Origin: a virus
Taxonomy: Duplodnaviria; Caudoviricetes
Virus record (IMG/VR): IMGVR_UViG_3300032075_000002
Location: 1-61,050 of that record
Strand: one strand, 5' to 3'
DNA: 61,050 bases
Within the stretch, counting starts at the first letter, position 1. Each line of letters starts with the position of its first letter. The notes under the pieces are model-generated. The model worked only from the letters and a program-made list of their open reading frames with translations. It was not told the origin of the DNA and did not search any database. The position numbers and the translations under genes are program-made. Positions 6,355 to 54,047 of the stretch are shown in pieces.

Positions 6355-6794
6355 GGCTTCTCCCTTGGCAGGACAGCGTCATGGCCCGCCTGAACGCGGT
6401 GCTGCCGGATCACATCCCGATCAAAGATGGCGGCTACGACGAGCCGGACGCGACCAGCAAGCTGACCAACGGCATGATTGCGCCGTACGTGCTGGTCTGG
6501 TTCGGTGGATCCATCGACGCCGGTCCTGGCCACGCGGGCATCTGCGGAGTCAACAAGGCCACCCGGCTGGGGCTCATCCACATCGAGTGTGTGGGAACCC
6601 TCATGAACCACGCCCGAGTCCTCGGAGATGAGGTAAGGGAAGCACTGGTCGGCTTCATACCGACTGGTGGCGGAGAGCTGGAAGAGGATGGAGCACCGAC
6701 TATCCGGAACCCCATCAGCACGACGACCGGCGTTGACGTCCGGTACTCGTACCCGCTCGCCTTCACCGGGATCGTGAACACCACGACCGCGTGA
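6351..6794 (+). CDS. Tail terminator
   Basis: PYVLVW motif, size and position before major tail; ATGA overlap. Confidence 0.65.
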   Translation: MRLLPWQDSVMARLNAVLPDHIPIKDGGYDEPDATSKLTNGMIAPYVLVWFGGSIDAGPGHAGICGVNKATRLGLIHIECVGTLMNHARVLGDEVREALVGFIPTGGGELEEDGAPTIRNPISTTTGVDVRYSYPLAFTGIVNTTTA

Positions 6795-6871
6795 TACCGA
6801 GTACGATGGCCCAAAGAGGAGCCCCCGCAGCCGGTGACACGGCTCGGGGGCGCGGACGAAGGAGTCTCGTC

Positions 6872-7306
6872 ATGAGGAAGCGTACCCTAGCCGAACGGCT
6901 GTGGGAGAAGGTCAACAAGACCGACACCTGCTGGCTCTGGACGGCCAGCACGAACAGCGCAGGCTACGGCCACATCAAGGACGAGGAGGACCGGCTCGTG
7001 CGAGCACACCGGGTTGCCTACGCCCTTGAGGTCGGGCCCATTCCGGAAGGACTGGATCTCGACCACCTGTGCCGCGTACGCCACTGTGTCCGGCCGTCTC
7101 ACCTGGAGCCGGTCACCCGCAGGGAGAACACGCTACGTGGGGAAACCCTCGCGGCAGCGAACGCCCAGAAGACCCAATGTTCCAAGGGTCATGAGTACGA
7201 CGAGGCCAACACCATCGTCCAGGGTGATGGCAAGCGGCGCTGCCGCAAGTGCAGGAACATACAGCGACGGGCCCGTCGCTCCTACAAGGTAAGCGAGGAA
7301 CGCTAA
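6872..7306 (+). CDS. Free-standing HNH homing endonuclease
   Basis: CWLWT...GYG...AHRVAY...LDHLC...CVRPSHLEPVT.REN plus C-terminal CSKGH...CRKC zinc motif. Confidence 0.9.
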   Translation: MRKRTLAERLWEKVNKTDTCWLWTASTNSAGYGHIKDEEDRLVRAHRVAYALEVGPIPEGLDLDHLCRVRHCVRPSHLEPVTRRENTLRGETLAAANAQKTQCSKGHEYDEANTIVQGDGKRRCRKCRNIQRRARRSYKVSEER

Positions 7307-21820: not shown

Positions 21821-22062
21821 AGCGCCACCTCCGTGAAGTTCGAGTCGTCGTCCAGATCGCCGTCCCTGTGCCGGACGGCGAGGACCATGGTCGGCTGGCA
21901 TTCGTGCTGGCTCGACGTCATGGACTTCTTCGCGATCTGTCGGGCGACCTCGATGTCAGCCGCGTCCATCAGCATCTCGAAGTAGTTGGCCCCGTCGCAT
22001 CCGTTGAGCTTGATGCGCATGGCGACCATGTTGTCGTCAGCCCACTCCTCGATCTTGCTCAC
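21817..22062 (-). CDS. Hypothetical protein
   Basis: GTG start with overlap; fills gap. Confidence 0.5.
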   Translation of the reverse strand: MSKIEEWADDNMVAMRIKLNGCDGANYFEMLMDAADIEVARQIAKKSMTSSQHECQPTMVLAVRHRDGDLDDDSNFTEVAL

Positions 22063-35570: not shown

Positions 35571-35585
35571 GTTGATGTACCTGCG

Positions 35586-35680
35586 TGGGGTGGACGGGAT
35601 TCGAACCCGCAGCCTCTTGCCTGCCTAGTCATCAGGCTGACCACTAAGCGTGGTGCGCTCTTCCGTTGAGCTACCACCCC
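35586..35680 (-). ncRNA. tRNA-like element with aberrant anticodon/variable region
   Basis: GGGGTGG/CCACCCC-A acceptor; TA; D-arm GCTC-AACGGAA-GAGC; T-arm GCGGG-TTCGAAT-CCCGT; ~45 nt non-canonical central region. Confidence 0.85.
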
Positions 35681-36032: not shown

Positions 36033-36947
36033 TCAGAGCACCTCGTTCTCGTGAATGGATACGACTTCAGCGTCGACGACTTCGAGCTGCCCGCCCTCGT
36101 CGTCATCCGCCTCGTCCGTGTGGTCGGCTCCGAGGTTGACCTCGTAGCCCTGCTTGGCCTTCTCCTCGGGGATCCGGAGCTTGGCCTGCTCTTCCGCCTC
36201 CCTGGCAGCCTGCTTGAACTGCCGCATCTTGGCGTTGAGCATGTCCTTAATGGTCATGGTCTGACCCTTGGGGATGGTGTTGAGCAGGCCGGAGGTGAGG
36301 GCCATCTTGTGGACCTCCACCAGCGTGCTCTCGACCGTGGCATCCTCGATGTGCATCATGAGGATGTCCTCCGGGGGGATGCGCTCCATCTGTTCAGCGC
36401 GGATCGGCATCCCGTCCCCGTTGACTATGGCTCCCATCTCCTCCGGCGTGTAGAGCAGGCCCATCAGAGCCTCCTCCGCACCGTCGCGGCAGACCTGGCT
36501 GATCGCCCGCCACTTCAGCAGGCTGGCCGGGTAGTTCCGCCACGTGTCCTTGCCCAGGAGCCCGGCGTCCTCCGCGTTCGGGTTGCCCTCCGGGTTGCGC
36601 TTGAGTTCCCACGTGACCTCGTACTCGAAGTCGGGGTCGTCGGCCCTGATCAGCCACGCCGTGGCCTTCAGTCCGTTCCCCTTGACGCGGAGCTTGTGGC
36701 CTGCCCGCCGTACCAGCGCGGACATGAGCGCGGCCGATGCGGTCGGCTTGCCGTTGATCACGTACATCGCCGTGATCGCGGTGATCGGGTGGAGGTTCAG
36801 GCTCTTCGCCATCTCCGCCGCCATGATCAGGTTGCCCGGCCGTCCCCGATACTGCGCGGGGAGGAGGTCAGCAGCGGCCAACTGATTGGCCCACTGTGCC
36901 CGCTCCAGGATCCCGTTCGGCTCTTGACGAGCCAGCTCGCTACCCAT
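36033..36947 (-). CDS. RecT/ERF-like single-strand annealing recombinase
   Basis: YVINGKP...LMSALVRRAGH...W..YPASLLKWRA.SQ..RD. Confidence 0.75.
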   Translation of the reverse strand: MGSELARQEPNGILERAQWANQLAAADLLPAQYRGRPGNLIMAAEMAKSLNLHPITAITAMYVINGKPTASAALMSALVRRAGHKLRVKGNGLKATAWLIRADDPDFEYEVTWELKRNPEGNPNAEDAGLLGKDTWRNYPASLLKWRAISQVCRDGAEEALMGLLYTPEEMGAIVNGDGMPIRAEQMERIPPEDILMMHIEDATVESTLVEVHKMALTSGLLNTIPKGQTMTIKDMLNAKMRQFKQAAREAEEQAKLRIPEEKAKQGYEVNLGADHTDEADDDEGGQLEVVDAEVVSIHENEVL

Positions 36948-36969
36948 AGCCACCTTCCTGTTGTCCGAG

Positions 36970-37060
36970 TGCATCCGGGTGGATTCGAACCACCGTACCC
37001 AAGAGGCGGGGAGAGTCGGGCCGCCCTGCTTGGTGCTTTTCCGGCCTAAGCTACGGATGC
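36970..37060 (-). ncRNA. tRNA-like element with elongated anticodon arm
   Basis: GCATCCG/CGGATGC-A; D-arm GCTT...AAGC; CCAAG/CTTGG stem enclosing 25 nt (further GGGCGG/CCGCCT pairing); T-arm GGTGG-TTCGAAT-CCACC. Confidence 0.88.
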
Positions 37061-37065
37061 CGGTT

Positions 37066-37100
37066 GGCACAGGGGCGGTTGCTTAGGCCGCCCCTGTGCC
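37066..37100. repeat. Strong hairpin immediately 5' of tRNA-like element
   Basis: GGCACAGGGGCGG...CCGCCCCTGTGCC, 13-bp perfect stem. Confidence 0.75.
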
Positions 37101-40003: not shown

Positions 40004-40046
40004 GTTGACTCTCCTTGATGGATGTTGTCCGGCATCGTTGCCAGCA

Positions 40047-40725: not shown

Positions 40726-41111
40726 ACGATCTCTCCGATCATCCAGAGCACCGCGAGTGCACCGGCCAGCATGATTGCCAGCGCGATGAACGTGCACCCG
40801 TAGCAGAACCACCGGACACCACGTTCCGGGTCGTACTTGCTCACAGCATTCCCACCATGACGTAGCAGGCGAACATTAGGGCACCCACCACGGCGACACC
40901 TACCAGCAGGCAGATACCCAGGAAGGTGTACCAGAGCGTGGCCATGATCCAGATCGGCAGCCAGCGGGTATCCCCGTTCAGGATGCTCTTGCCCATTAGC
41001 TCATCCTCCATGCGGTGACCACGGCGACGAGCACGACGTACCCGACTACCCCGTACAGGATCGCGGCCAGCAGGTACAGCGGCCAGTACGTACGGAACTC
41101 GAACCGGCTCA

Positions 41112-44181: not shown

Positions 44182-44230
44182 GGTGTTGCCTCTCTACGTG
44201 CTTGCTACTGCCCGGCATGGTTGCCGGTCA

Positions 44231-45110: not shown

Positions 45111-46262
45111 TTACTTGCCCTCGGACTCGCGCAGAGCCTTGGCAGCGGCGGCGGTACGGGCCTTCTTCACCTTGTCCCAGTACCGGCGCTTGGCCGTCCG
45201 GGAGAGCTTGGCGAACTCCGCACCGTTCAGGTACCCGAACTTGCCACCGACGCGGTCGGTCACGATCTTCGCACCATCAGCAGTGGCGACGATCTTGCGG
45301 TCGGTCCGGGCACTCGCGTCCAGACGTTCCCGGCCAAGCGGCATGTCCATGGTGGTGCGGACCGGCTTGGTACCACCGTTGAGCTTGTCCTCCTTGCGCT
45401 CCCTCGGCACAGCACCGGTCATGTCGCGGCCGGAGGTGAGAGAGGTGTGGCCACGGTACGTACCAGCCTGCGCACCGCCGACCATGTCGTCTGCGCTGGG
45501 GTTCTGCCGGTCCTCCGTGTGCACCGCTCCCGAGACGTCACCGAACAGCTTGGGCTCCGTCAGCGGCTTGTGGACCTTAGGCTTGCTGATCTTGCGGGGG
45601 GCCGGGGTCTTGCTGTCCTTGGGCGTGTGCCGGGTGTGTCCGGGCAGGATGGTGGCGCCGTCGGCGGACTTCACCGCTTCCACCTTGACGACCTCCACCG
45701 ACGGACCGTCGGCCTGCGCCGGGGACTCCTCCCGGTGCTCCACGGTCAGCATGGTGGGCAGGGTGATGACCGGGGCCACGCGGGGGCATCCGCAGTCCAT
45801 GCAGTCCTGGTCGTGCTCGCACTCCTTCGCACCCTTGCAGGTGCAGTCGGGGGCGAAGATCATGGCGACCGCGTCGTCCACGGCCTTGGCGGACTCCTCC
45901 ACCTCACGCTGGGCAGCGGCCAGCTCTCCCAGCGCTTCGATCTTCTCGTACGAGTTGTCCCACTTCGCCTGCCGCGCGGCCTCACCCATGAGGTCGAAGA
46001 GCTTGGCGCAGTTCTTGCACATCGCGGAGTCGTCGTACTTCCGCTCGACAGGGGTGTCCTGTCCCTTCGAGTTGGTGGTGGTGAAGACACCGCCGCACGC
46101 CTTGACGTACGTGTTGTCTTCCGTGGTCCACGCCAGCGGGTCGTTGAAGAATCCGGGGTCGATCATGATCCCGTGCGCCATCCCGTTGTGGTAACCGGCG
46201 CGGTACATCTGGTCATCCTCGTTCAGTGCGAGGAACAGGTTCGAGCGGTCGATCTTGGACAT
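45111..46262 (-). CDS. Hypothetical protein, first gene of the early operon (Cys clusters, basic C-terminus)
   Basis: RBS AGGA; CKNC and CTC..CMDCGC. Confidence 0.7.
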   Translation of the reverse strand: MSKIDRSNLFLALNEDDQMYRAGYHNGMAHGIMIDPGFFNDPLAWTTEDNTYVKACGGVFTTTNSKGQDTPVERKYDDSAMCKNCAKLFDLMGEAARQAKWDNSYEKIEALGELAAAQREVEESAKAVDDAVAMIFAPDCTCKGAKECEHDQDCMDCGCPRVAPVITLPTMLTVEHREESPAQADGPSVEVVKVEAVKSADGATILPGHTRHTPKDSKTPAPRKISKPKVHKPLTEPKLFGDVSGAVHTEDRQNPSADDMVGGAQAGTYRGHTSLTSGRDMTGAVPRERKEDKLNGGTKPVRTTMDMPLGRERLDASARTDRKIVATADGAKIVTDRVGGKFGYLNGAEFAKLSRTAKRRYWDKVKKARTAAAAKALRESEGK

Positions 46263-46269
46263 GGTTGTC

Positions 46270-46900
46270 CTACCATTCTTGGTTGTGTGTACTGCGGAGT
46301 GTGGGGGAGGAGCCGGGGCTTAGGCATAGCGCAACAGAGCGTTACCACCGCGTTCCGGCATCCTCGTACTTAGCCTGCACTCCTGGCATCTCAGAGCGCA
46401 GCGCTAGCCCCATCGTTCCCCCCGGCCGATTTGATCGGTACTACCACGTTCGTAGCGGGGGAAGATTTCCCAGCATGATTGCCAGGGTGGAGCTTGCCCG
46501 CAGGACTGTCCCCTTGTCTGACCGAGTTGGATGGCGATCCGTCCGATGGCTTGCTAGTGCTCGCCCCGTATCGTCCGTTCGCAGCTATTAAGGCTAGTAC
46601 GGGGTCCGGCGCCGCTTACGGTGGCCGGGTTGGTCCGTACGTCCAGTGTGGGGAGTGGACATAGTTGTCCGTCGGGCGCCGCTAACGGTGGCCCTATCTC
46701 CCAGGGTGCTTCACTCGGCAGGTTCTTTGTCCTGCGGCACTCGGTACTTGCATCGGTTCCCATCCTAGCGGCTTCTCGGCGCACTCCAGGCATGATTGCC
46801 CGGCATGACTTACCCTACTCGCCTACCCTTACTGACCAGCTTGCTAGGCTGCGATCTTGGGCGATTCAGGAGACCGGAGCTTTCCCGGTGTGAATCTCAT
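46270..46900 (-). ncRNA. Candidate long structured leader/ncRNA
   Basis: No ORF with phage codon bias; many hairpins; internal repeats GGCCACCGT(A/T)AGCGGCGCC x2 and GGCAATCATGC x2. Confidence 0.5.
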
Positions 46901-46906
46901 TTCGTC

Positions 46907-46929
46907 CACTGTTGAGTTCTCAAGGAGCA
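46907..46929 (-). promoter_or_regulatory. rrn-leader boxA/antitermination-like element
   Basis: Minus strand TGCTCCTTGAGAACTCAACAGTG matches the conserved actinobacterial 16S leader (TTGAGAACTCAA) with boxA-like TGCTCCTTGA. Confidence 0.75.
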
Positions 46930-47110
46930 TCCGGCTTGCGTAAAGCTCTCTCGCAGGATCTCACCGGCATTCTTGCCAGCTTCCCCCACTTAGCCCCCGC
47001 CGACGTAGTCGTCAGCAGTCGCATCCGGGTCAAGCGCTTTGGTGCGTGTGCCCCGCCGTAGTCGGCAGGTCCTGCCCCGGTCACCGTGTGTCCGGGTCTT
47101 GCTGGGCTTA

Positions 47111-47139
47111 ACCTTACCGGCTTCGAGTGAGTCTGTCAA
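47111..47139 (-). promoter_or_regulatory. Housekeeping-sigma promoter P1
   Basis: TTGACA-17nt-TAAGGT. Confidence 0.85.
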
Positions 47140-47200
47140 CTCCCTGCGTTTCCGGCGGTTGGGGCGATCAAGCTGCCCCGCCCTGGTCTTGCTGGGCTAG

Positions 47201-47229
47201 AACCTAGCGGGTTTCGGTGAGTCTGTCAA
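47201..47229 (-). promoter_or_regulatory. Housekeeping-sigma promoter P2 (tandem duplicate, 90 bp upstream)
   Basis: TTGACA-17nt-TAGGTT; shares GAGTTGACAGACTCAC and downstream AGCCCAGCAAGACC with P1. Confidence 0.85.
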
Positions 47230-48008
47230 CTCACTGCCTTCCCTCGGTTGCTGCGGATCACCGTTGTTGCTGGGATCGTTGGCGTTGCCCGGCGGACCGT
47301 CCCGCACTTCCCTGTGTAAGCGGAGCGGATCGGGTGGAACGTGTGGAGCGTGTGGAGCGTGTGTGCCTGTGTGTAAGGAGCGTGTCCCGACGCTGCGTGG
47401 CGTTGGATCGGGCGTATCACGCTCGCTACACGATGGCCGCTCGTACGTACCGAGTGATCCTGTGCAGTGCGGGTTAGGACCGCTTCGCCGTGCCTGCCGT
47501 TGTCGGCGGGCTGTGCTGCTTGGCGATGACCGAAGACTGACAGAGTCGAGTGAAGATCACAACCCCAGATCGCAAGCGGAAGGGTGTTTTCGGCTCATCG
47601 TGCCTGGTCAGAGCGCTGTAAATATTTTTCTGGAGGATCGTGGACGGGGTGAAGGATGTCCTAGTTTGGCATGGTTCTGAGTCTTGTTACTGGCGGGTCA
47701 CATAATGTGGAGAAAATAGGACATGTGGGGTGTGTGACGGGTCGTCAGAAGTGGTTTGGATCATGGAAATTAGACGGTTGTCAGCCAAAGATGTCCTGGT
47801 TTGCCTGGTACAAAGCGTGGTACAGAAAGGCCGGCGATCGGGGGTTGGTACAAAGCGCGGTACAAACAGGTGTTCGAGCGAGATACGGGTACGGGGTAGG
47901 GGTATACGAGGGGAGCGTCAACCTGAAGTTGACAGTGGCTGTCGGCATGGCTACGCCCCATGGCTACGGGGAGCACATGGGGCGCGGCATTGCTGGCGAA
48001 TGCGGGTG

Positions 48009-48230
48009 TCAGTACGTCATGCCACTTGCGGGCGTAGTGGATACGTCATCGCGAGATATCGCGGTAACGGCCGGAACATCGTGGTCAGTGCGAATGTCCT
48101 GAAGTGCTGACGTGAGAAGTACACACACAGCGGCATTCATGGATATGCCGTGGTCTGCCGCATAAGCACGCAGCTTTTCGCGGAGTACAGGAGGAACACG
48201 GGAAGGCAGATTTACACGCTCTGTAGTCAT
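48009..48230 (-). CDS. Ribbon-helix-helix (Arc-like) DNA-binding protein
   Basis: NLPSRVPPVLREKLRAYAADHGISMNAAVCVLL. Confidence 0.75.
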   Translation of the reverse strand: MTTERVNLPSRVPPVLREKLRAYAADHGISMNAAVCVLLTSALQDIRTDHDVPAVTAISRDDVSTTPASGMTY

Positions 48231-48439
48231 GTCCCAATGCTCGCAGAATGCAAGCACATTGCATAGATATTGAATTAGGACTAGCGAGCGCGGGCGTGCA
48301 TCGGCACAGGAGGTGCCGACGCGTAGCGAGGCTGAGAAGCGATTCTTTGGGGTGCTGTGGAGCCTGCCAGCGTGAGGGTGGGGAAGAGTGCCGGATTGCG
48401 GGTGCTGGGCTGTGAGGGGCGTACAGGGACGGTAAGAGG

Positions 48440-49560
48440 ATGTGAGCCCAATTCAAGGATTGGGCCTAATTCACTGATGTCCGGTTTGAACCACACATGA
48501 TTTTAATATCAAGAGTGAATATATAAACAAGATGAAATAGGTACAGTGGTACTAATTCCATCACTACCTAAAACAGAAAGTAGGAAAGCTAAGAGTCGGT
48601 CGAAAAACACATGATCAACAGCACTAATTCACTGATCCTGTAGTGGATATAGGACTACGACTAGGGCTAAAACAACTCCTGACCTGGGCTTATAACACAT
48701 GGGGGTAGTGGTGGAATTAGGTGGGAATAGGGGTGGAATTAGGGTTGGTGATGGGGGTGGATATCGGATGGGGATAGGGGTGGAAATAGGTAGGGGTAGG
48801 GGTAGTGAAATGGGGTTGATAGAGGGCGTGTAGTAGGGCTAATTCAAGGGTGATTTTCAAGCCTAAATCTAAGATGACTAGGGCTAATTCAGGGGCTCTG
48901 AAATGGGATCGAAGGTGGTGGATATCGGCTCATGATCAAAGTGGTTTTAGGATTGAGGGTATTGAATTAGGTGTGAGAGAGGTAGTGAAATGAGTAGGTG
49001 GTGGAAATAGGAAGGGGTAGTGATTAAGGCCCTGTGCCGAGGGGGTGGAAATAGGGCTAGTAGGGATATGGGGTTAGGTGATATCGGTTTGGTGTAGTGG
49101 AATTAAGCATGGATAGCGCAGTGAATTAGCACAGTGCACTAATTCAAGGGTAGTGGAATTAATGCAGGGGATATCGGTAGTGGTGGATATAGCACAGTGG
49201 GGATATAGGCATGGCACTATCACAGGGTAGTGATATAGCCCTAGTGCAGGATAGGTGTATGTTACACACATCATAGTGTTATGAGTATGTATTCATAACA
49301 CATGTAGATAACAGAGAGTAATGATGAGGTGATGAGTAATGATGAAGAAAGAGGCGAGGTGATGGGCGCTGTGCCGATGAAGTCATGAATGCAATTGAAT
49401 GCAGCGAGCGAGGTAGTTGAATGGAAAACCATCGGGGAGGGGGGAATAGAAAACCAAATTACCCATGAATTCTGATAAAGGCAGGGGAGGTAATACGTAT
49501 ACGTACATCAACCCCAGAAATTCCGGCCGCTGTCCCAGGTAATGCCGATTAATCCTGTAT
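48440..49560. other. AT-rich, strand-skewed non-coding region with short repeats (candidate origin or pac region)
   Basis: No credible ORF; G/A-rich + strand; repeated CTAATTC/GAATTAG, GTGGAAATAGG and GATATCGG. Confidence 0.75.
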
Positions 49561-49602
49561 AGCCCCTAGATGTCCCATTTGTCGTGTGGTACATTCACGC
49601 GC

Positions 49603-50355
49603 ATGGCCACCAAACGAGGACCCGGGCGCGAAGTCGAGCGCATCATCGCCGCAGGCGGCGCACCTACGCCGCCCAACCAGAACCAGAGCATGGGACACCC
49701 CATCGCGGACCCGCGCTACACCGAGGAAGGTCACCTGCTCACGGAAGAGCTGGTGAACCTCCGAGCTAAGGGCCGGACCTGGATGCAGATCCAGATGGAA
49801 ACCGGTATTCCTGCACAGAGCGCAGCGGTGCGCGTGAGCGACTACCTCAACGGGCAGTACGCCAGCACCAGCATCGAAGAGGCGCGGCAGCTCCAGATCC
49901 GCCGACTTGAGATGATCATGGGCTACCTGTACGAGCAGGTGGCGGCGGGCGACTTCCTGACGCAGGGCAGGCACACGACCAACCTGATCGCGACGATCCA
50001 GCAAGTCACCGAGCTGCTGGACCTCAAGAAGGACCGCCTGAAGGACGAGCAGGTCCGCCTGACGCAGGAGCAGACCGGCCTGATCGGGATCATCCTGGAC
50101 GAGGTGCGCGCGGCAGTGCTGGACGCGGTGATGGGACTGCTGACCGAGCGCAGCCAGTACCACGCCGACACCGGCAAGCGCAGCGTGGACGACGTCGCCG
50201 GACTGCGCGCGGTGCTCGAACGCGACTGGGGCGGCTGGTTCGCGACAGCGGCGGCGAACGCGCTGGAGATGGCGAGCCCCGACAACAACAGCGCGGCCGG
50301 GCCGGTCACCGCGCAGACCACCCGGACCACCGTGATCAAGGGAGAACGCGCATGA
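49603..50355 (+). CDS. Terminase small subunit (HTH)
   Basis: LRAKGRTWMQIQMETG HTH, RQLQIRRLE; upstream of TerL; TGTGG-TACATT-7nt-ATG suggests a leaderless start. Confidence 0.7.
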   Translation: MATKRGPGREVERIIAAGGAPTPPNQNQSMGHPIADPRYTEEGHLLTEELVNLRAKGRTWMQIQMETGIPAQSAAVRVSDYLNGQYASTSIEEARQLQIRRLEMIMGYLYEQVAAGDFLTQGRHTTNLIATIQQVTELLDLKKDRLKDEQVRLTQEQTGLIGIILDEVRAAVLDAVMGLLTERSQYHADTGKRSVDDVAGLRAVLERDWGGWFATAAANALEMASPDNNSAAGPVTAQTTRTTVIKGERA

Positions 50356-50678
50356 GCAGCAGGAGCAGAGGCGGGAAGTTCCTGGAGACCGCGCACGTCC
50401 ACGAGAAGGAGCGGGTCAAGCGCGGGATCGGCTCGAAGTTCCCCGAGCTGGGAGCGATGCAGCCGGAGCGCGACGACTGCGCGCCGCCGCTGGTCGTATG
50501 CGGGCGCTGTGCCGTGTGCGGGGACGCGGCGGCCCGGCAGCTCGCGGTGCTGGCCACGCGGCTCCCCAGCAAGGAAGCGAGCGCCGGGCTGCGCACGTCC
50601 CTGCTCGCGCTGGGCATACTGGCTCCGGAGGACGACGGAGACAGCAGCGGCGCGGCACAGGAGGAGCGGACGGCATGA
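50352..50678 (+). CDS. Hypothetical protein (CxxC-xC)
   Basis: ATGA overlaps on both sides. Confidence 0.55.
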   Translation: MSSRSRGGKFLETAHVHEKERVKRGIGSKFPELGAMQPERDDCAPPLVVCGRCAVCGDAAARQLAVLATRLPSKEASAGLRTSLLALGILAPEDDGDSSGAAQEERTA

Positions 50679-53206
50679 ACGAAGTCAGCCAGGACGTACG
50701 GGCAGCACTGCTTGCGCGGTTCGAGGGCCAGAAGCGGGCGGCCGACTACGCCGTGGACCCACGAGCATGGGCAAAGGACAAGCTCGGGGTACACCTGTGG
50801 TCGAAGCAGGTGGAGATCACCAACAGTGTGCGAGACCACAAGCGCACTGTGGTGGCAAGCTGCCACGGTTCTGGCAAGGCTCTGGAACTCTCCACCAAGC
50901 TCCGTACGCCGACGGGGTACACGACCATGGGTGAGGTGCAGGTAGGGGACTGGCTGCTCGATGAGAGCTACCGACCTACGCGTGTTGTGGCGATGACGCC
51001 GGAGCACAGGAAGAACGGGGCCACGTTCGGGTTCCAGCTCTGGGACCAGCGCAAGCAGGTATACCGCCGAGAGGTCATCAGCAGCAGCTACGAGCACGAG
51101 TGGCAGGTGATATCGCCCGCGCAGCAGGCGGTTATCCGGGTCCTGTGCAGTCGGAACGGGATCCGCGAGAATCCGGACTGGTCGTACTGGATGCACAGGT
51201 CCGAGACCATTACGACGCTCGACATGTACGGCGAGTACATCAGTGCGGGCAAGCAGTGGGAGTTCGTGGAGAAGGCGGTGATCCCGGCTGCGCGCGAGAT
51301 CCCGACCGCGCTCCAGCTCAACCTGGACCTGGCCACCATGGAGAGCGCCGGGTTCGCGCAGATGGCACAGGACCACGGGACGGTGGACGACGAGGGCCGC
51401 CTCTGCATGAAGATGACGGCGATACAGCACCCGAGCATCCGGCAGATGATGCCGCCGCCGGACCTCGTGGACGCGCGCAGGTACGCGGAGGAGAAGCTGG
51501 ACATCCGCACCGTGCTCGTGAAGACCCGCAAGGGCTACGTAGCCACCTACGATCTGGTCTTCCGCTGCGACCCCATGGAGCTGCTGCGCAACTTCGTGTT
51601 CGGCGCGGAGAAGACCAGGGACATCAACGGCCTCTGTGCCGGTGACGTACAGGCCATCGCGCTCCAGAAGTACGACATCGACCGTCGTGTCTGCCGATTC
51701 GGTGGCTGGACGCTGGGTGGAGCCGAGCCGTTCAAGGAGAAGGTCGTCAAGTGCGTGGAGGTGGACAGCGAGAACCATGTCTACCTGGCCGGGCAGAACG
51801 ACGTGCCCACCCACAACAGCATGATCGCCTCGGTCATCGCCGCGTGGTGGATCGACGTGCACCCTCCGGGGTCCGCCATCGTCGTCAGCACCGCTCCGAC
51901 GTACGCGCAGGTCCACGCGATCCTCTGGGAAGAGATCCGGAAGCACCACGCGAGCGCCAAGGAGCGCGGTGTACCGCTGCCGGGCTCCATCACCATGGCC
52001 GACAACTGGAACCTGGACAATGGCAGCCTGGTCGGATTCGGCCGCAAACCGAAGGATGGCGACCGCCACGCCTTCCAGGGCATCCACCGCCGGTTCGTGC
52101 TGGCGATCCTGGACGAAGCGTGTGGTGTACCGGAAGAACTGTGGACCGGTGCAGAGGCCATCACCACCAACGAAGGCTGCCGCATCCTGGCGATCGGTAA
52201 CCCTGACGACCGAGACACCGAGTTCGGCAAGAACTACTGCGACCCCACCACTGCGCAGGACTGGAACCGCATCAGTATCCCTGCCTTCTCGACACCCAAC
52301 CTGACCGGCGAGATCGTGCCTCCACTGCTGAACGAGGTGCTGGTCGCCCGAGCGTGGGTGGACGAGCGCAAGCGTGGTTGGGGTGAGGACGACCCCAGGT
52401 ACATCTCCAAGGTGCTGGCCGAGTTCCCTGAGCAGAACCAGGCTTCCCTGTTCTCGCCGGTCGTCATCGCGACCGCGTTCGAGCAAGAGGGCCGTAAGCG
52501 GGCAGAGCGGCCGACCACCCTGTACTTCGGACTCGACGTCGCGCGCTACGGTGGTGACCTCTCCGTGCTCTGCATGTTCGACGGGGTCCGAGCCAAGGTA
52601 CTCGACTCGTGGTCCGGCATGGATACGGTCTCCACAGCGAACCGCGCACTGCTCCGCATAGGCGAGGAAGTCAAGGATCGCAAGGCAGTCTTCGCAGACA
52701 TCCGCGTTGACGCCGTCGGCCTCGGTGCCGGTGTGGTGGACACCATGGCGGCCACCCGCGCGAACCTGGAGCAGGAGCTGGCGCCGCTCGGACGGGAGCC
52801 GTGGTTCGTCGTGCGCGAGATGCACGGCAGCGCGGCGGCCCCGAAGGACGTCGGCGGCTCTGTGCAGGGCTACGGCAACGCCAGGGCCTGGTGGTTCGAC
52901 CAGCTCAAGCACCTCATGCGCTCGGGCACCATCGAGATCGAGGAGCACGAGAAGCTCAAGGGTGAGCTGGGAGGCGTCCGGTACGACTACCGGAACGGCA
53001 AGCTCTACATCGAGAGCAAGGAGGAGATGCGCAAGGACGGCCGCAAGTCCCCTGACTATGCTGATGCGTTGGTCTACGCGACGGCGCCGGTACACGAGGG
53101 GCTGGCCATGGGTGACACAGTGTCAGAGACCGCTCACAACATGGCACAGGCCGCCGAGCTGGAGGAAGCCCTCATGCTCGCGGAGATGTCTATTTCACCG
53201 TTCTAA
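50675..53206 (+). CDS. Terminase large subunit containing an intein
   Basis: Walker A SCHGSGK|S split by intein; STAPT..QV, FQGIH, ILDEA, IGNP, FGLDVAR, SPDYADA. Confidence 0.93.
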   Translation: MNEVSQDVRAALLARFEGQKRAADYAVDPRAWAKDKLGVHLWSKQVEITNSVRDHKRTVVASCHGSGKALELSTKLRTPTGYTTMGEVQVGDWLLDESYRPTRVVAMTPEHRKNGATFGFQLWDQRKQVYRREVISSSYEHEWQVISPAQQAVIRVLCSRNGIRENPDWSYWMHRSETITTLDMYGEYISAGKQWEFVEKAVIPAAREIPTALQLNLDLATMESAGFAQMAQDHGTVDDEGRLCMKMTAIQHPSIRQMMPPPDLVDARRYAEEKLDIRTVLVKTRKGYVATYDLVFRCDPMELLRNFVFGAEKTRDINGLCAGDVQAIALQKYDIDRRVCRFGGWTLGGAEPFKEKVVKCVEVDSENHVYLAGQNDVPTHNSMIASVIAAWWIDVHPPGSAIVVSTAPTYAQVHAILWEEIRKHHASAKERGVPLPGSITMADNWNLDNGSLVGFGRKPKDGDRHAFQGIHRRFVLAILDEACGVPEELWTGAEAITTNEGCRILAIGNPDDRDTEFGKNYCDPTTAQDWNRISIPAFSTPNLTGEIVPPLLNEVLVARAWVDERKRGWGEDDPRYISKVLAEFPEQNQASLFSPVVIATAFEQEGRKRAERPTTLYFGLDVARYGGDLSVLCMFDGVRAKVLDSWSGMDTVSTANRALLRIGEEVKDRKAVFADIRVDAVGLGAGVVDTMAATRANLEQELAPLGREPWFVVREMHGSAAAPKDVGGSVQGYGNARAWWFDQLKHLMRSGTIEIEEHEKLKGELGGVRYDYRNGKLYIESKEEMRKDGRKSPDYADALVYATAPVHEGLAMGDTVSETAHNMAQAAELEEALMLAEMSISPF
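50879..51817 (+). mobile_element. Class 3 intein (313 aa) in the terminase P-loop
   Basis: Starts ALELSTKLRTPTG (Ala1); block B HEW; block F VKCVEVD; ends PTHN followed by Ser. Confidence 0.88.
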
Positions 53207-53282: not shown

Positions 53283-54047
53283 ATGGCAACGCCTCCGAGC
53301 CACACCGCTGTAGTTGAGGCCATGCGCAAGTTCGGCGTAGAGGTCGTCACCTACCCGGGGTGGGAGAACCACAACCGCAACCAGGTTGGTAAGTGGGGTG
53401 GCGTCAACGGCGTCATGATCCACCACACTGTGACGCGTGGTCACGACAACACGCTGAACATCCTGAAGCGAGGCTACTCGGGTCTCCCGGGTCCGCTCTC
53501 GCAGTTCGCGGGCATGAAGGACGGCAAGGTCTACGGTATCGGGTGGGGGCGCTGCAACCACGCCGGTAAGGGCGACAGCGACGTGCACTCCGCCGTCGTG
53601 GCCGAGAACTACGGGGACTACCCGCCCCGGTGCGACGAAGCCGACATGGACGGCAACCCGCACTACATCGGGTTCGAGTGCGAGAACATGGGCGACGGCG
53701 AGGACCCGTGGCCCGAGATCCAGACCGACGCGGTCATCCGCGCCGCCGCCGCGATCTGCTACCTGATGGGCTGGAGCGCCGACTCCATCATCGGGCACAA
53801 GGAGTGGCAGCCCGGCAAGGTGGACCCGCGTGGGCCCGGTATGCCGAGCATGGCTGAGTTCCGCCGCCGCGCTCAGGCGTACATCGACAACCCGCCGAAC
53901 ACCAAGAAGTTCTACACGGTGGTGGCGGGGGACACCTTCTGGGCCATCGCCCGGAAGCACGGGATCAGCGTGGAAGCCCTGGTGGCTCTGAACCCCAGCG
54001 TCTCGCCGAGTCTCATCCACCCGGGCGACAACATCCGCGTCAAGTAG
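53283..54047 (+). CDS. Endolysin: N-acetylmuramoyl-L-alanine amidase + LysM
   Basis: IHHT, NHAG, IGFECEN, IGHKEWQPGKVDP; C-terminal YTVVAGDTFWAIA...IHPGDNIRV. Confidence 0.92.
   Translation: MATPPSHTAVVEAMRKFGVEVVTYPGWENHNRNQVGKWGGVNGVMIHHTVTRGHDNTLNILKRGYSGLPGPLSQFAGMKDGKVYGIGWGRCNHAGKGDSDVHSAVVAENYGDYPPRCDEADMDGNPHYIGFECENMGDGEDPWPEIQTDAVIRAAAAICYLMGWSADSIIGHKEWQPGKVDPRGPGMPSMAEFRRRAQAYIDNPPNTKKFYTVVAGDTFWAIARKHGISVEALVALNPSVSPSLIHPGDNIRVK

Follow-up and report, generated by a model that had tools for sequence, protein, structure and literature searches.

Background

In the pL-nutL-N leader of phage lambda and in the T7 early leader with RNase III site R0.3, one or more early promoters, a boxA-containing antitermination signal and a long hairpin precede the first early gene; host RNase III cleaves this hairpin and so sets the translation and stability of the first gene's message. 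Processive antitermination by boxA and Nus factors operates in lambda nut and in rrn operons, and phages commonly use hairpin operators whose loops are invariant. Early-operon leaders decide the take-off of an infection, and almost nothing is known about them for uncultured soil phages.

The put RNA of HK022 is reported to be a protein-free, cis-acting element of the phage early leader (PMC9378689). Candidate structured RNAs have also been collected by comparative genomics, with 224 motifs reported in PMC5737381 and 10,006 csRNAs from IMG/VR in PMC10690425.

The window, by which we mean the whole 61,050-nt stretch of DNA analyzed here, is the 61-kb genome of a phage and has direct terminal repeats; the phage is uncultured and its source habitat is soil. 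On the minus strand, positions 46263 to ~47195 form the untranslated leader of a leftward early/replication operon of ~26 kb. The parts of this leader follow the same order as in the lambda and T7 leaders, but 560 nt separate boxA from the hairpin and a boxB/N system is lacking. Unlike RNase III sites, the hairpin has a near-invariant tip of 24 nt that is common to unrelated phages, and its cleavage is only proposed; set against the RNase III criterion of about two turns of double-stranded RNA, the family has a median of 29 interrupted base pairs and the window copy, 88 nt overall, only 12 bp within the ladder. The Actinomycetota rrn leader (boxB-boxA-boxC) is similar in that tandem promoters and a structured segment precede a boxA that matches at 14 of 15 bases, whereas boxA in the window is followed by an unconserved spacer and protein genes rather than a stable RNA, and NusB/NusE binding is putative. 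The likeness to put is that of a cis-acting early-leader RNA without a phage protein, compared by position; put is promoter-proximal, whereas the window motif is proximal to the start codon. As in the csRNA catalogues, a covarying motif is found consistently upstream of genes in uncultured phages; unlike the GP20 and GP32 motifs, however, this one follows operon position and not a gene family. The reading that best explains the whole, and one that we consider rather probable, is a modular leader made up of tandem promoter-like repeats of the sigma-70 type, a structured segment with boxA, a spacer and an 88-nt hairpin (Table 1).

Table 1 Features of the early-operon leader and its first gene, listed from the gene toward the promoter-like repeats
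Feature	Position	Strand	Basis or detail
First gene of the leftward operon, 383 aa	45111..46262	-	GC3 0.88
Shine-Dalgarno-like GGUAGGA, before ATG 46262	46268..46274	-	putative, read from sequence
Conserved long hairpin, 88 nt, 34 nt upstream of first gene	46296..46383	-	MFE and covariance model
Apical core GGUAACGCUCUGUUGCGCUAUGCC	46323..46346	-	sole leader block conserved with relative L097
Unconserved, fast-evolving leader spacer (~520 nt) with local repeats (46608-46626 and 46675-46693; 46470-46485 and 46787-46802)	46384..46908	-	no alignment to relative L097
rrn-type boxA TTGAGAACTCAACAG	46909..46923	-	exact match in window
Promoter-proximal structured segment, upstream of boxA	46941..47100	-	folding z-scores
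Promoter-like repeat P1: -35 TTGACA (47134-47139), 17-nt spacer, -10 TAAGGT (47111-47116)	47111..47139	-	sequence
Promoter-like repeat P2: -35 TTGACA (47224-47229), 17-nt spacer, -10 TAGGTT (47201-47206)	47201..47229	-	sequence

Results

The leftward operon, as traced by a strand map and Pfam matches, runs on to ~20421 and contains an SNF2 helicase, a primase (DUF3987/RepB) and DNA polymerase A, while its first gene has no Pfam or PHROG family. An earlier note on this DNA had placed a stretch lacking any ORF with the genome's codon bias between a boxA and the first early gene. The coordinates agree with that placement, and all 20 ORFs of at least 25 aa within 46200-47720 have a third-position GC of 0.52-0.76 without periodicity, compared to 0.75-0.98 for a comparison set of 60 ORFs called genes by a GC3 rule. 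The leader stretch is genuinely non-coding DNA. A 53-aa ORF at 47039-47200 (+), with a GC3 of 0.76, passes the crude filter yet overlaps the promoter repeats. The note used plus-strand coordinates; the RNA of interest reads from the minus strand. A 3.3-kb non-coding region with iteron-like repeats adjoins the hairpin element.

The promoter-like repeats P1 and P2 are 62-nt direct repeats with 79% identity that both fit TTGACA-17-TANNNT, and on these sequence grounds they are candidate promoters. A scan for E. coli-type promoters and terminators listed none of the leader sites discussed here, P2 being missed because its -10 fits TANNNT only. RNA-library contigs of runs X14 and X17 extend to 47204 and 47178, a weak hint only. 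A conserved block, TTAAGCCCAGCAAGAC, directly follows P1, and the block TTGACAGACTC...GCCGG.AAG.TTAAGCCCAGCAAGA, together with its spacing to boxA, is common to the viral contigs L035 and L058. In the structured segment, the 120-nt folding windows 47100-46981 and 47060-46941 gave minus-strand z-scores of -3.35 and -2.76 (plus strand, -2.33 and 0.03); we take its position to recall that of the boxB hairpin preceding boxA in rrn leaders.

The boxA reported in the note was recovered, as TTGAGAACTCAACAG matches 14 of the 15 bases of TTGAAAACTCAACAG, an element upstream of 16S rRNA, and it lies 190-300 nt downstream of the promoter-like repeats. With one mismatch, the 15-mer occurs once each in 14 of the 61 genomes belonging to the same class as a Solirubrobacteraceae MAG. 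In all three places checked in Actinomycetota-class genomes the rrn element is found ~150-215 nt upstream of 16S rRNA. The boxA 16-mer was present in 95 viral contigs, 64 of these with a GC of at least 0.55, and rrn-type boxA is in wide use among high-GC phage leaders; boxA antitermination in actinobacteriophages had no match among the best-ranked literature matches listed. By analogy with rrn operons and lambda nut, boxA and the structured segment probably recruit host Nus factors for processive antitermination.

In this stretch, the note had seen dense hairpins, two sets of duplicated hairpins and T-loop-like motifs. Over the whole 668 nt, the folding z-score was -0.46 on the minus strand and -0.55 on the plus strand (20 shuffles each). 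Among 18 sliding 120-nt minus-strand windows, the outliers were the two in the structured segment given above and 46420-46301 (-2.55); the remaining 15 were between -1.57 and +1.21, and the 13 wholly or mostly inside the spacer between -1.41 and +1.21. Folding energy is ordinary except just past the promoters and in the last ~120 nt, and a density of hairpins beyond chance was not confirmed. Both duplications are real. The 19-mer stem-loop at 46608-46626 and 46675-46693 was seen as a 23-nt repeat with 91% identity (46604-46626 and 46671-46693), either copy folds into a small hairpin (-10 to -13 kcal/mol), and its pattern occurred in 0 viral contigs. The duplicated GGCAATCATGC hairpins, found at 46468-46486 and 46785-46803 (19 nt, 84%), are members of a dispersed CYGGCA-N4-TGCYGG family with seven matches in the window against 0.54 in shuffles; since further copies lie at 40029, 40766, 44212 and 46964, these hairpins are not particular to the leader. 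The T-loop-like motifs corresponded to no tRNA-like gene by ARAGORN and to no Rfam match at E ≤ 10, and neither ARAGORN nor the Rfam tRNA model found a tRNA-like element in the leader, the nearest tRNA-like genes being at 35585-35680 and 36969-37060, ~9-10 kb away.

Conservation of the leader is modular. Against L097, the sole syntenic relative found, whose terminase is 63-64% identical, the leader has one shared block of 42 nt (46315-46356) and is otherwise unalignable, a lack of conservation that is read from L097 alone. The leader does contain a conserved structured RNA. The earlier note's reading was that the whole ~630 nt may be a single large, abundant structured ncRNA, comparable to GOLLD or ROOL, in the place that rRNA holds in an rrn operon. 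The stretch is indeed non-coding, lies downstream of boxA and is represented by a 718-nt contig in RNA libraries, but only 42 of ~640 nt align with the relative, the overall z-score is -0.46 with no excess folding in the middle 500 nt, the repeats are local or dispersed, Rfam gives no match at E ≤ 10 and the tRNAs are ~9-10 kb off. We consider a single large RNA very unlikely, and the idea of a giant GOLLD-like RNA should be given up, although the unconserved leader could nonetheless be abundant. What is conserved is an 88-nt element at the leader's 3' end, not the entire leader.

Contigs 99% identical over the leader occur in four soil metatranscriptome runs (X8, X14, X17 and X19), and one RNA-library contig of 718 nt covers 46348-47066; such contigs inform on presence, not on strand, ends or abundance. 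One contig of run X8 ends at 46348, 2 nt before the core, and no RNA-library contig lies on 47606-49807 and almost none on 49808-52000; contig ends and gaps carry no weight.

The 88-nt hairpin has a minimum free energy of -36.9 kcal/mol (z -2.78, 300 shuffles) and scores 58 bits with covariance model R1 (E 1.4e-10). Its core folds into P3 (GGUA/UGCC, with a U.G wobble), an A bulge, P4 (CGC/GCG), a hexaloop UCUGUU and a CUA bulge. A fuzzy 24-mer search allowing up to 5 substitutions found no further copy of the core in the window or in 95 boxA loci, and in a search for a pseudoknot, hexamers complementary to the tip were not enriched within 250 nt on either side. No riboswitch-type expression platform accompanies the hairpin, as no U-tract follows it, the Shine-Dalgarno sequence is not sequestered and the tip is not complementary to its flanks. 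Pairing of the tip with 16S rRNA was considered and rejected, the best duplex having -21.1 kcal/mol compared to -18.1 +/- 2.0 kcal/mol for shuffled cores, 7-9% of which do as well. The note had claimed no family match, and positions 46200-47400 gave 0 Rfam matches at E ≤ 10. The sole match of the whole window to Rfam 15 (4,227 models) at gathering thresholds was a tRNA at 35586-35680, and on 55 further motif loci no Rfam match overlapped the motif.

The core proved to be widespread. An 18-mer scan of viral contigs gave 12 loci, 11 of them with the full 24-mer; a 16-mer scan gave 18 loci, 13 of them true, including two with ACUA/UGGU; and a metagenome scan gave 80 loci. Of 96 core instances examined, ~10 were due to chance and 86, on phage or metagenome stretches, were kept, 67 of them distinct. 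The core is near-invariant across contigs with a GC of 0.43-0.70; positions 4-21 were fixed by the search patterns, and invariance there rests on two relaxed viral-contig scans, in which P4, when left free, was CGC/GCG in 11 of 11 and the loop, when left free, was UCUGUU in 11 and UCCGUU in two. The motif is missing from 50,697 isolated phage records. Searches of the isolated-phage collection with the leader and the first gene by megablast, blastn and tblastn gave no relatives, and the 61-nt hairpin centre gave four rows only, at chance level (E 5); a search for loci related to the 383-aa first gene also yielded none. In bacterial genomes, the core or its complement had 2 matches among 185,579 species, one being the motif itself and the other due to chance. 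Core 13-mers or their complement had no match in the literature text searched. The tip of the hairpin defines an RNA family that is widespread in uncultured soil phages; no description of this family was found, and it may sit unnamed among the csRNAs of PMC10690425.

Covariation of the RNA type is clear in the closing helix. Across 60 distinct rows, P3 is 99.2% paired; pair 2-23 of the core (alignment 36-57) is GC in 40, CG in 13, AU in four, UA in two and GU in one, and alignment pair 35-58 is GC in 49, AU in nine and other in two. The covariation score of 0.310 compares with 0.108 in shuffles, 0 of 500 reaching it, and with at most 0.121 when slid. Below P3, the median hairpin length is 29 bp (n=59); it falls to 2 bp when the 3' flank is shuffled (n=177) and to 1 bp elsewhere in the same loci (n=156; p 1e-22 vs controls). 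These stems are variable in sequence and broken by bulges and internal loops. Compensatory changes are present in 13 of 22 predicted pairs of subtype A (13 sequences), and subtype B (5 sequences) has a side hairpin with 3 compensatory pairs; one subtype forms a three-way junction, and both scaffold subtypes bear additional conserved nucleotides in internal loops or junctions.

Fold energy and mismatch counts of the flanks do not decide the strand: in 43 of 61 cases the more stable fold is that of the antisense strand, which is however richer in G+U, and the interior A.C mismatches number 16 with the sense strand folded and 25 with the antisense strand folded, the latter being sense G.U pairs. 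A sense reading is preferred because the wobble U3.G22 is kept in 59 of 60 rows, variant L117 (GGC..GUC) retains P3 in the sense strand only, and the motif is constantly co-oriented with the operon. G.U pairs are also present in stem P2.

By pattern search, the motif is single-copy in 10 of 10 phage records, in each case at or near the head of a replication-gene operon, and the covariance model gave one match per genome in 735,210 nt, with the next best at E 4.2; G008 (181 kb) was covered by the pattern search and lay outside the BLASTP and covariance-model analyses. Four genomes (G000, G003, G004, G005) have the motif at the divergent switch, and three more (G006, G007, G010) have it nearby. 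In genomes with a leader of at least 1 kb, it adjoins the first start codon and not the promoter. The median distance to the start codon is 81.5 nt from the core (IQR 64-143, n=42) and 44 nt from the hairpin 3' end (n=35 with at least 10 bp), and 24 of the 67 instances lie between co-directional genes inside an operon. A boxA with up to two mismatches in a plausible place was found in 0 of the 9 other motif genomes. Genes flanking the motif are unrelated from phage to phage. In an all-vs-all BLASTP of 10 genomes, the sole widespread protein was the SNF2 helicase, in seven, and the ORF next to the motif fell in none of the 13 clusters spanning at least three genomes. No protein family was common to the 10 motif genomes at BLASTP E 1e-5, a threshold insensitive to small or fast-evolving proteins; this lack of a common phage protein points to a conserved host partner. 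In locus L188, a Pistol self-cleaving ribozyme (RF02679; 41.7 bits vs a gathering score of 34.5) starts 17 nt after the core as a separate RNA directly 3' of the motif. Such a neighbor, lacking in the window, was seen at 1 of 55 motif loci scanned and may be a coincidence.

Discussion

The hairpin is a concrete, testable element of ~90-130 nt with 67 distinct natural variants and clear covariation. Its presence in phages with almost no shared genes implies either that the host target is conserved or that the RNA has an activity of its own. We tentatively read it as a signal for RNA processing, stability or translation entry that is recognized by a conserved host factor. The invariant tip would dock this factor, which may be an endoribonuclease or another RNA-binding machine; the docked factor would separate the early mRNA from the long leader, or from an upstream cistron, by cutting or by insulation, and this would set the fate of the first gene's message. 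The Pistol ribozyme in L188 was counted as a hint for processing, but RNase III-type processing neither needs nor explains an invariant 20-nt tip. If the hairpin were a portable processing or antitermination signal, it would offer a new means of acting on gene expression in Actinomycetota and would mark early-operon starts in viromes.

A new protein-independent class of leader RNA, whose tip grips a universal host machine at the entrance of the early/replication operon, is rather unlikely in our estimate; its most exciting form would be a put-like, polymerase-binding RNA, a self-cleaving ribozyme being less likely. As a leader signal of the put, EAR or LoaP kind, the tip would bind host RNA polymerase or a NusG-type factor and resist pausing or termination over an operon of 25-40 kb. 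A single copy co-oriented with the operon at or near its head in 10 of 10 genomes, the lack of a common phage protein and hence a host partner, and near-invariance over a GC of 0.43-0.70, which suits a universal target, all speak for such a signal; we nevertheless hold it to be unlikely, as in leaders of 1-4 kb the motif keeps close to the first start codon and not to the promoter, the ribozyme in L188 would cut the RNA just behind it, no Rfam family is like it in sequence, and a boxA is already at hand in the window, though in none of the other nine motif genomes. Proximity to the start codon, tens of nucleotides upstream of a Shine-Dalgarno sequence in most instances, would instead suit an operator for a phage-encoded RNA-binding protein that represses or activates translation of the first early gene or times the shut-off of early genes, and invariant-loop hairpin operators are common in other phages. 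Such an operator is quite unlikely, given an RNA that is near-invariant in phages sharing almost nothing, a Shine-Dalgarno sequence that the hairpin does not sequester, and no common protein family in 10 genomes at BLASTP E 1e-5, which small or fast-evolving proteins would escape.

The L188 locus bears on two further readings. Pistol directly 3' of the hairpin would release a hairpin-ended RNA, as expected if the leader or its 3' hairpin were freed as a stand-alone small RNA or decoy acting in trans on a host target, and this is the closest surviving form of the earlier note's idea. Leader sequence in four RNA libraries is compatible with it, and the tip, lacking complementarity to its own flanks, is therefore free to interact; it is decidedly unlikely, however, with a ribozyme at 1 of 55 loci only, with 16S rRNA pairing by the tip no better than that of shuffled cores, and with the exact core and its complement lacking in host genomes (185,579 species, with one true motif and one chance match). 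The same adjacency could be taken to suggest that the motif cleaves itself, as a new small ribozyme, since ribozymes of different classes are said by Weinberg et al. in 2015 to tend to neighbor each other. Conserved nucleotides in bulges and loops amid variable helices, and in internal loops or junctions of the two scaffold subtypes, would agree with this, but a single adjacency in 55 loci and an invariant terminal hairpin loop, atypical of known small ribozymes, make it extremely improbable. Finally, we give scarcely any credence to an element working as DNA, such as a hairpin of single-stranded DNA at an origin of replication or some other protein site in the large non-coding region. In its favor are the single copy, the position beside the 3.3-kb iteron-like non-coding region and next to the replication operon, and an antisense strand that folds no worse than the sense strand; on the other side, no shared Rep or primase was found, 24 of 67 instances lie between co-directional genes within an operon, and the U.G wobble is kept in 59 of 60 rows, together with the G.U pairs in stem P2.

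Organization of the leader region

The 61,050-bp window, which is the whole IMG/VR virus record, carries direct terminal repeats at its ends, has a GC content of 64%, and contains about 60 genes called by a third-position-GC rule. An almost gene-free interval of 3.3 kb (46263–49569) separates the plus- and minus-strand gene blocks, and the stretch under study is the left part of this gap, lying upstream of the first leftward gene, so that its sense is the minus strand. All 20 open-reading frames of at least 25 aa within 46200–47720 had a GC3 of 0.52–0.76 compared to 0.75–0.98 in called genes, and on this basis the stretch is indeed non-coding, as the earlier note had proposed. We conclude that it is a modular early-operon leader, in which putative tandem promoters are followed by a structured start with an rrn-type boxA, a fast-evolving spacer, and finally an 88-nt hairpin.

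Features of the window referred to in the text
Feature	Position	Strand	Remarks
Plus-strand gene block	from 49570 round to ~20200	+	includes terminase, endolysin
Terminase	50498–53206	+
Endolysin	53283–54047	+
Leftward gene block	46262 down to ~20421	−	includes SNF2 helicase, DUF3987/RepB-type primase, DNA polymerase A
First leftward gene	45111–46262	−	383 aa, no family match
Promoter-like repeats, 62 nt	47092–47153, 47182–47243	−
rrn-type boxA	46909–46923	−	TTGAGAACTCAACAG
Hairpin	46296–46383 (core 46323–46346)	−	−36.9 kcal/mol, z −2.78
CYGGCA-N4-TGCYGG	40029–40044, 40766–40781, 44212–44227, 46470–46485, 46787–46802, 46964–46979	−
CYGGCA-N4-TGCYGG	21895–21910	+

The dense hairpins described in the earlier note, which had proposed a single large RNA of ~630 nt, showed no excess over chance across the region (z −0.46 on the minus and −0.55 on the plus strand). 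Among 18 sliding windows, only those covering the first ~160 nt after the promoter-like repeat P1 (z −3.35 and −2.76) and the one at the final ~120 nt (z −2.55) stood out. Rfam returned no match in 46200–47400 even at E ≤ 10, and similarity searches of an isolated-phage collection found no phage similar to the region. One syntenic relative, the 60.6-kb contig L097, was reached via its terminase (63–64% identical) and has the same layout of leftward first gene, long gap, and rightward terminase. BLASTN over the whole gap gave a single block, window 46315–46356 against L097 6466–6507, and global alignment of the two leaders recovered this block and no other. The ~630 nt are therefore not conserved as a unit in the one relative compared, and a large structured non-coding RNA spanning the whole stretch is very improbable.

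Both duplications described in the earlier note are real. The GGCAATCATGC hairpins, while duplicated, are not special to the stretch, being members of a dispersed family of 16-nt inverted repeats, CYGGCA-N4-TGCYGG, with seven strict matches in the window compared to 0.54 in shuffles; besides the GGCAATCATGC pair the repeat has four further sites, of which two fall within called operon genes. Nearly all copies point the same way along the early operon. Operator sites in one orientation are known as stoperators, and the dispersed repeat recalls such sites or small RNA hairpins. The L097 leader (6615–7230) has its own repeated word, GGCCATGT, with at least six copies by eye, and the repeats of the window differ; around a single conserved hairpin, each of the two leaders seems to evolve repeats peculiar to its own lineage.

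Promoter-like repeats and boxA

Upstream of boxA, the two 62-nt direct repeats each contain TTGACA, a 17-nt spacing, and TANNNT on the minus strand, and the first repeat and its distance to boxA are common to other viral contigs. The promoter-like block TTGACAGACTC...TTAAGCCCAGCAAGA is kept across unrelated contigs (the window, L035, L058, and L061), with conservation extending ~15 nt past the presumed −10, and may encode more than a plain sigma-70 promoter.

The boxA noticed earlier proved genuine. With one mismatch allowed, 14 of 61 genomes from the class of a Solirubrobacteraceae MAG had a single copy of the 15-mer, and it lay 150–215 nt upstream of 16S rRNA at all three places checked with Rfam. 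The 16-mer CTTGAGAACTCAACAG (window 46908–46923) was present in 95 viral contigs (L002–L096), and 64 of the 95 have a GC content of at least 0.55, representing 57 distinct contexts. These high-GC contigs mostly carry CCTTGAGAACTCAACAGTG in non-coding DNA, often ~600–700 nt from a locus end, and a host-like boxA seems to be widely used in leaders of high-GC phages. By analogy, we infer that the boxA segment would serve Nus-factor antitermination. Among the ten motif-bearing genomes, boxA was found in the window's phage and not in the other nine, indicating that boxA and hairpin are independent modules; the L097 leader also lacks boxA.

A conserved hairpin family

Public collections were queried with the centre of the conserved block. 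Twelve viral contigs matched, 11 of them carrying the full 24-mer GGTAACGCTCTGTTGCGCTATGCC, the core that tops the hairpin; a 16-mer query gave 18 viral contigs, of which 13 were true, two with ACTA...TGGT ends. At least 80 metagenome contigs were recovered, and among prokaryotes (one genome for each of 185,579 species) there were only two matches, one a true copy of the motif, carried by a 5-kb MAG contig, and the other chance. From at least 96 instances, ~10 with non-pairing ends were set aside as likely chance, leaving at least 86, at least 67 of them distinct.

The flanks of the core are unrelated in sequence between instances, yet the two sides are complementary, forming a hairpin with a median of 29 bp (n = 59) compared to 2 bp with the 3′ flank shuffled (n = 177) and 1 bp elsewhere in the same loci (n = 156; Mann–Whitney p 1e-22). 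The core-closing helix covaries, with 99.2% of cells paired in 60 distinct rows: pair 2–23 was GC in 40, CG in 13, AU in four, UA in two, and GU in one, pair 1–24 was GC in 49, AU in nine, and other in two, and a U3·G22 wobble was present in 59 with C–G in one. The covariation score of 0.310 was reached in none of 500 shuffles (0.108) and fell to at most 0.121 when partner columns were slid. Core positions 4–21 were preset by the search patterns and were freed in two extra scans of viral contigs, which returned CGC/GCG in the P4 stem in 11 of 11 and, for the hexaloop, UCUGUU in 11 and UCCGUU in two. Both UCCGUU variants form complete hairpins, with a Shine-Dalgarno sequence and ATG downstream.

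Scaffolds fall into subtypes. In subtype A, compensatory changes affect 13 of the 22 predicted pairs, and GA[A/C]GCU facing ACUC makes up a further conserved internal loop; subtype B resembles a three-way junction, with conserved junction letters and a side hairpin (loop CGAAUGGA, three compensatory pairs). The flanks do not discriminate between the strands; the antisense strand, which is the richer in G+U, gives the better fold in 43 of 61 cases. The sense reading is adopted because the U·G wobble is conserved, because of the variant in contig L117, and because the operon's own transcript must contain the motif.

No Rfam 15 family matches the motif, it was not found in isolated phages, and the core sequence was not found printed in the literature searched. 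The family itself was not found described, and the motif may be listed in the supplements of an IMG/VR-based catalogue from 2023 (PMC10690425), which comprises 10,006 candidate structured RNAs.

Genomic placement and possible function of the hairpin

Ten phage records of 48–181 kb bear the motif (CheckV completeness 95–100% in eight, 84% and 32% in two); nine were analysed whole and the 181-kb G008 by pattern only. Pattern search found exactly one copy in each of the ten, always co-oriented with the following genes, and a covariance model likewise gave a single hit per genome in a set of 10 made up of the window and the nine whole records (735,210 nt in total), the next-best match having an E value of 4.2. 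The motif lies at a divergent strand switch in G000, G003, G004, and G005, and near one in G006, G007, and G010; in G009 it is found ~3 kb inside the operon. In leaders of 1–4 kb it occupies the gene-proximal end, and downstream of the core there is a start codon with its Shine-Dalgarno sequence at a median distance of 81.5 nt (IQR 64–143, n = 42). A co-directional ORF ends 54–183 nt upstream in 24 of 67 instances; these ORFs belong to 18 families, the largest (six members) being ArdC-like, as confirmed in two of two tested, and are as varied as the genes following the motif.

The metagenome contig L188 (49% GC) has a Pistol self-cleaving ribozyme (RF02679; 1884–1933, plus strand) that begins 17 nt after the core and matches the full model at 41.7 bits against a gathering score of 34.5. 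Given this neighbour and the proximity of the motif to start codons, we tentatively favour a putative signal for processing, stability, or translation entry that a conserved host factor would read. In layout, this is analogous to the lambda N leader and to T7 R0.3. That the hairpin is itself a new ribozyme is extremely improbable; among the remaining 54 loci scanned, none had a ribozyme beside the motif. A DNA-level site, against which the conserved wobble speaks, deserves equally little credence.

A put-like antiterminator that binds polymerase, a role in keeping with an element always co-oriented with its downstream genes but less so with its placement at the gene-proximal end of long leaders, is doubtful. 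An operator for a phage protein is unlikely: the window and nine phages share almost no proteins, only an SNF2 helicase being common to seven, and the motif-adjacent ORF is in none of the 13 clusters spanning at least three of these genomes. A released small RNA or decoy is improbable. The complement of the tip was not found in the motif flanks, which would leave the tip free to interact, but against 16S rRNA the tip had no significant complement. As for transcription, four soil metatranscriptome runs contain 99%-identical contigs over early genes and leader, one of which (718 nt, 46348–47066) runs through boxA and spans most of the leader; such contigs establish that the sequence is present in RNA libraries, and do not bear on strand, ends, or level.

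Other features of the genomes

PHROG matches to the 902-aa terminase are split (residues ~101–179 and 441–868), and the ~270 unmatched residues between them, an arrangement also seen in L097, could be an inserted domain or intein-like element. A tRNA-like gene of an odd 95–96 nt (35585–35680, minus strand) was called tRNA by Rfam (48 bits) and "tRNA-???" with a two-letter anticodon by ARAGORN, and may contain an intron or have an unusual loop at the anticodon. A further call, tRNA-Cys (36969–37060), falls within the GC3-called gene at 36033–37070. In the motif-bearing phage contig L098 (6006–6295, plus strand), an 80-nt match to the tmRNA model comes after a tRNA and, at 47.2 bits, lies right at the gathering score.

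A low-GC (50%) stretch at 48500–49300 (plus strand) is dense in one-strand iteron-like words (GTGGAAWTAGG five times, GATATCGG four times, and TAATTCA five times) and may represent an origin, partition, or packaging region. It adjoins a small ribbon-helix-helix/Arc-like ORF (48009–48257, minus strand) with weak Pfam FitA/Arc matches, and the equivalent place in L097 (7800–8960) holds another repeated word, GTGAATA....
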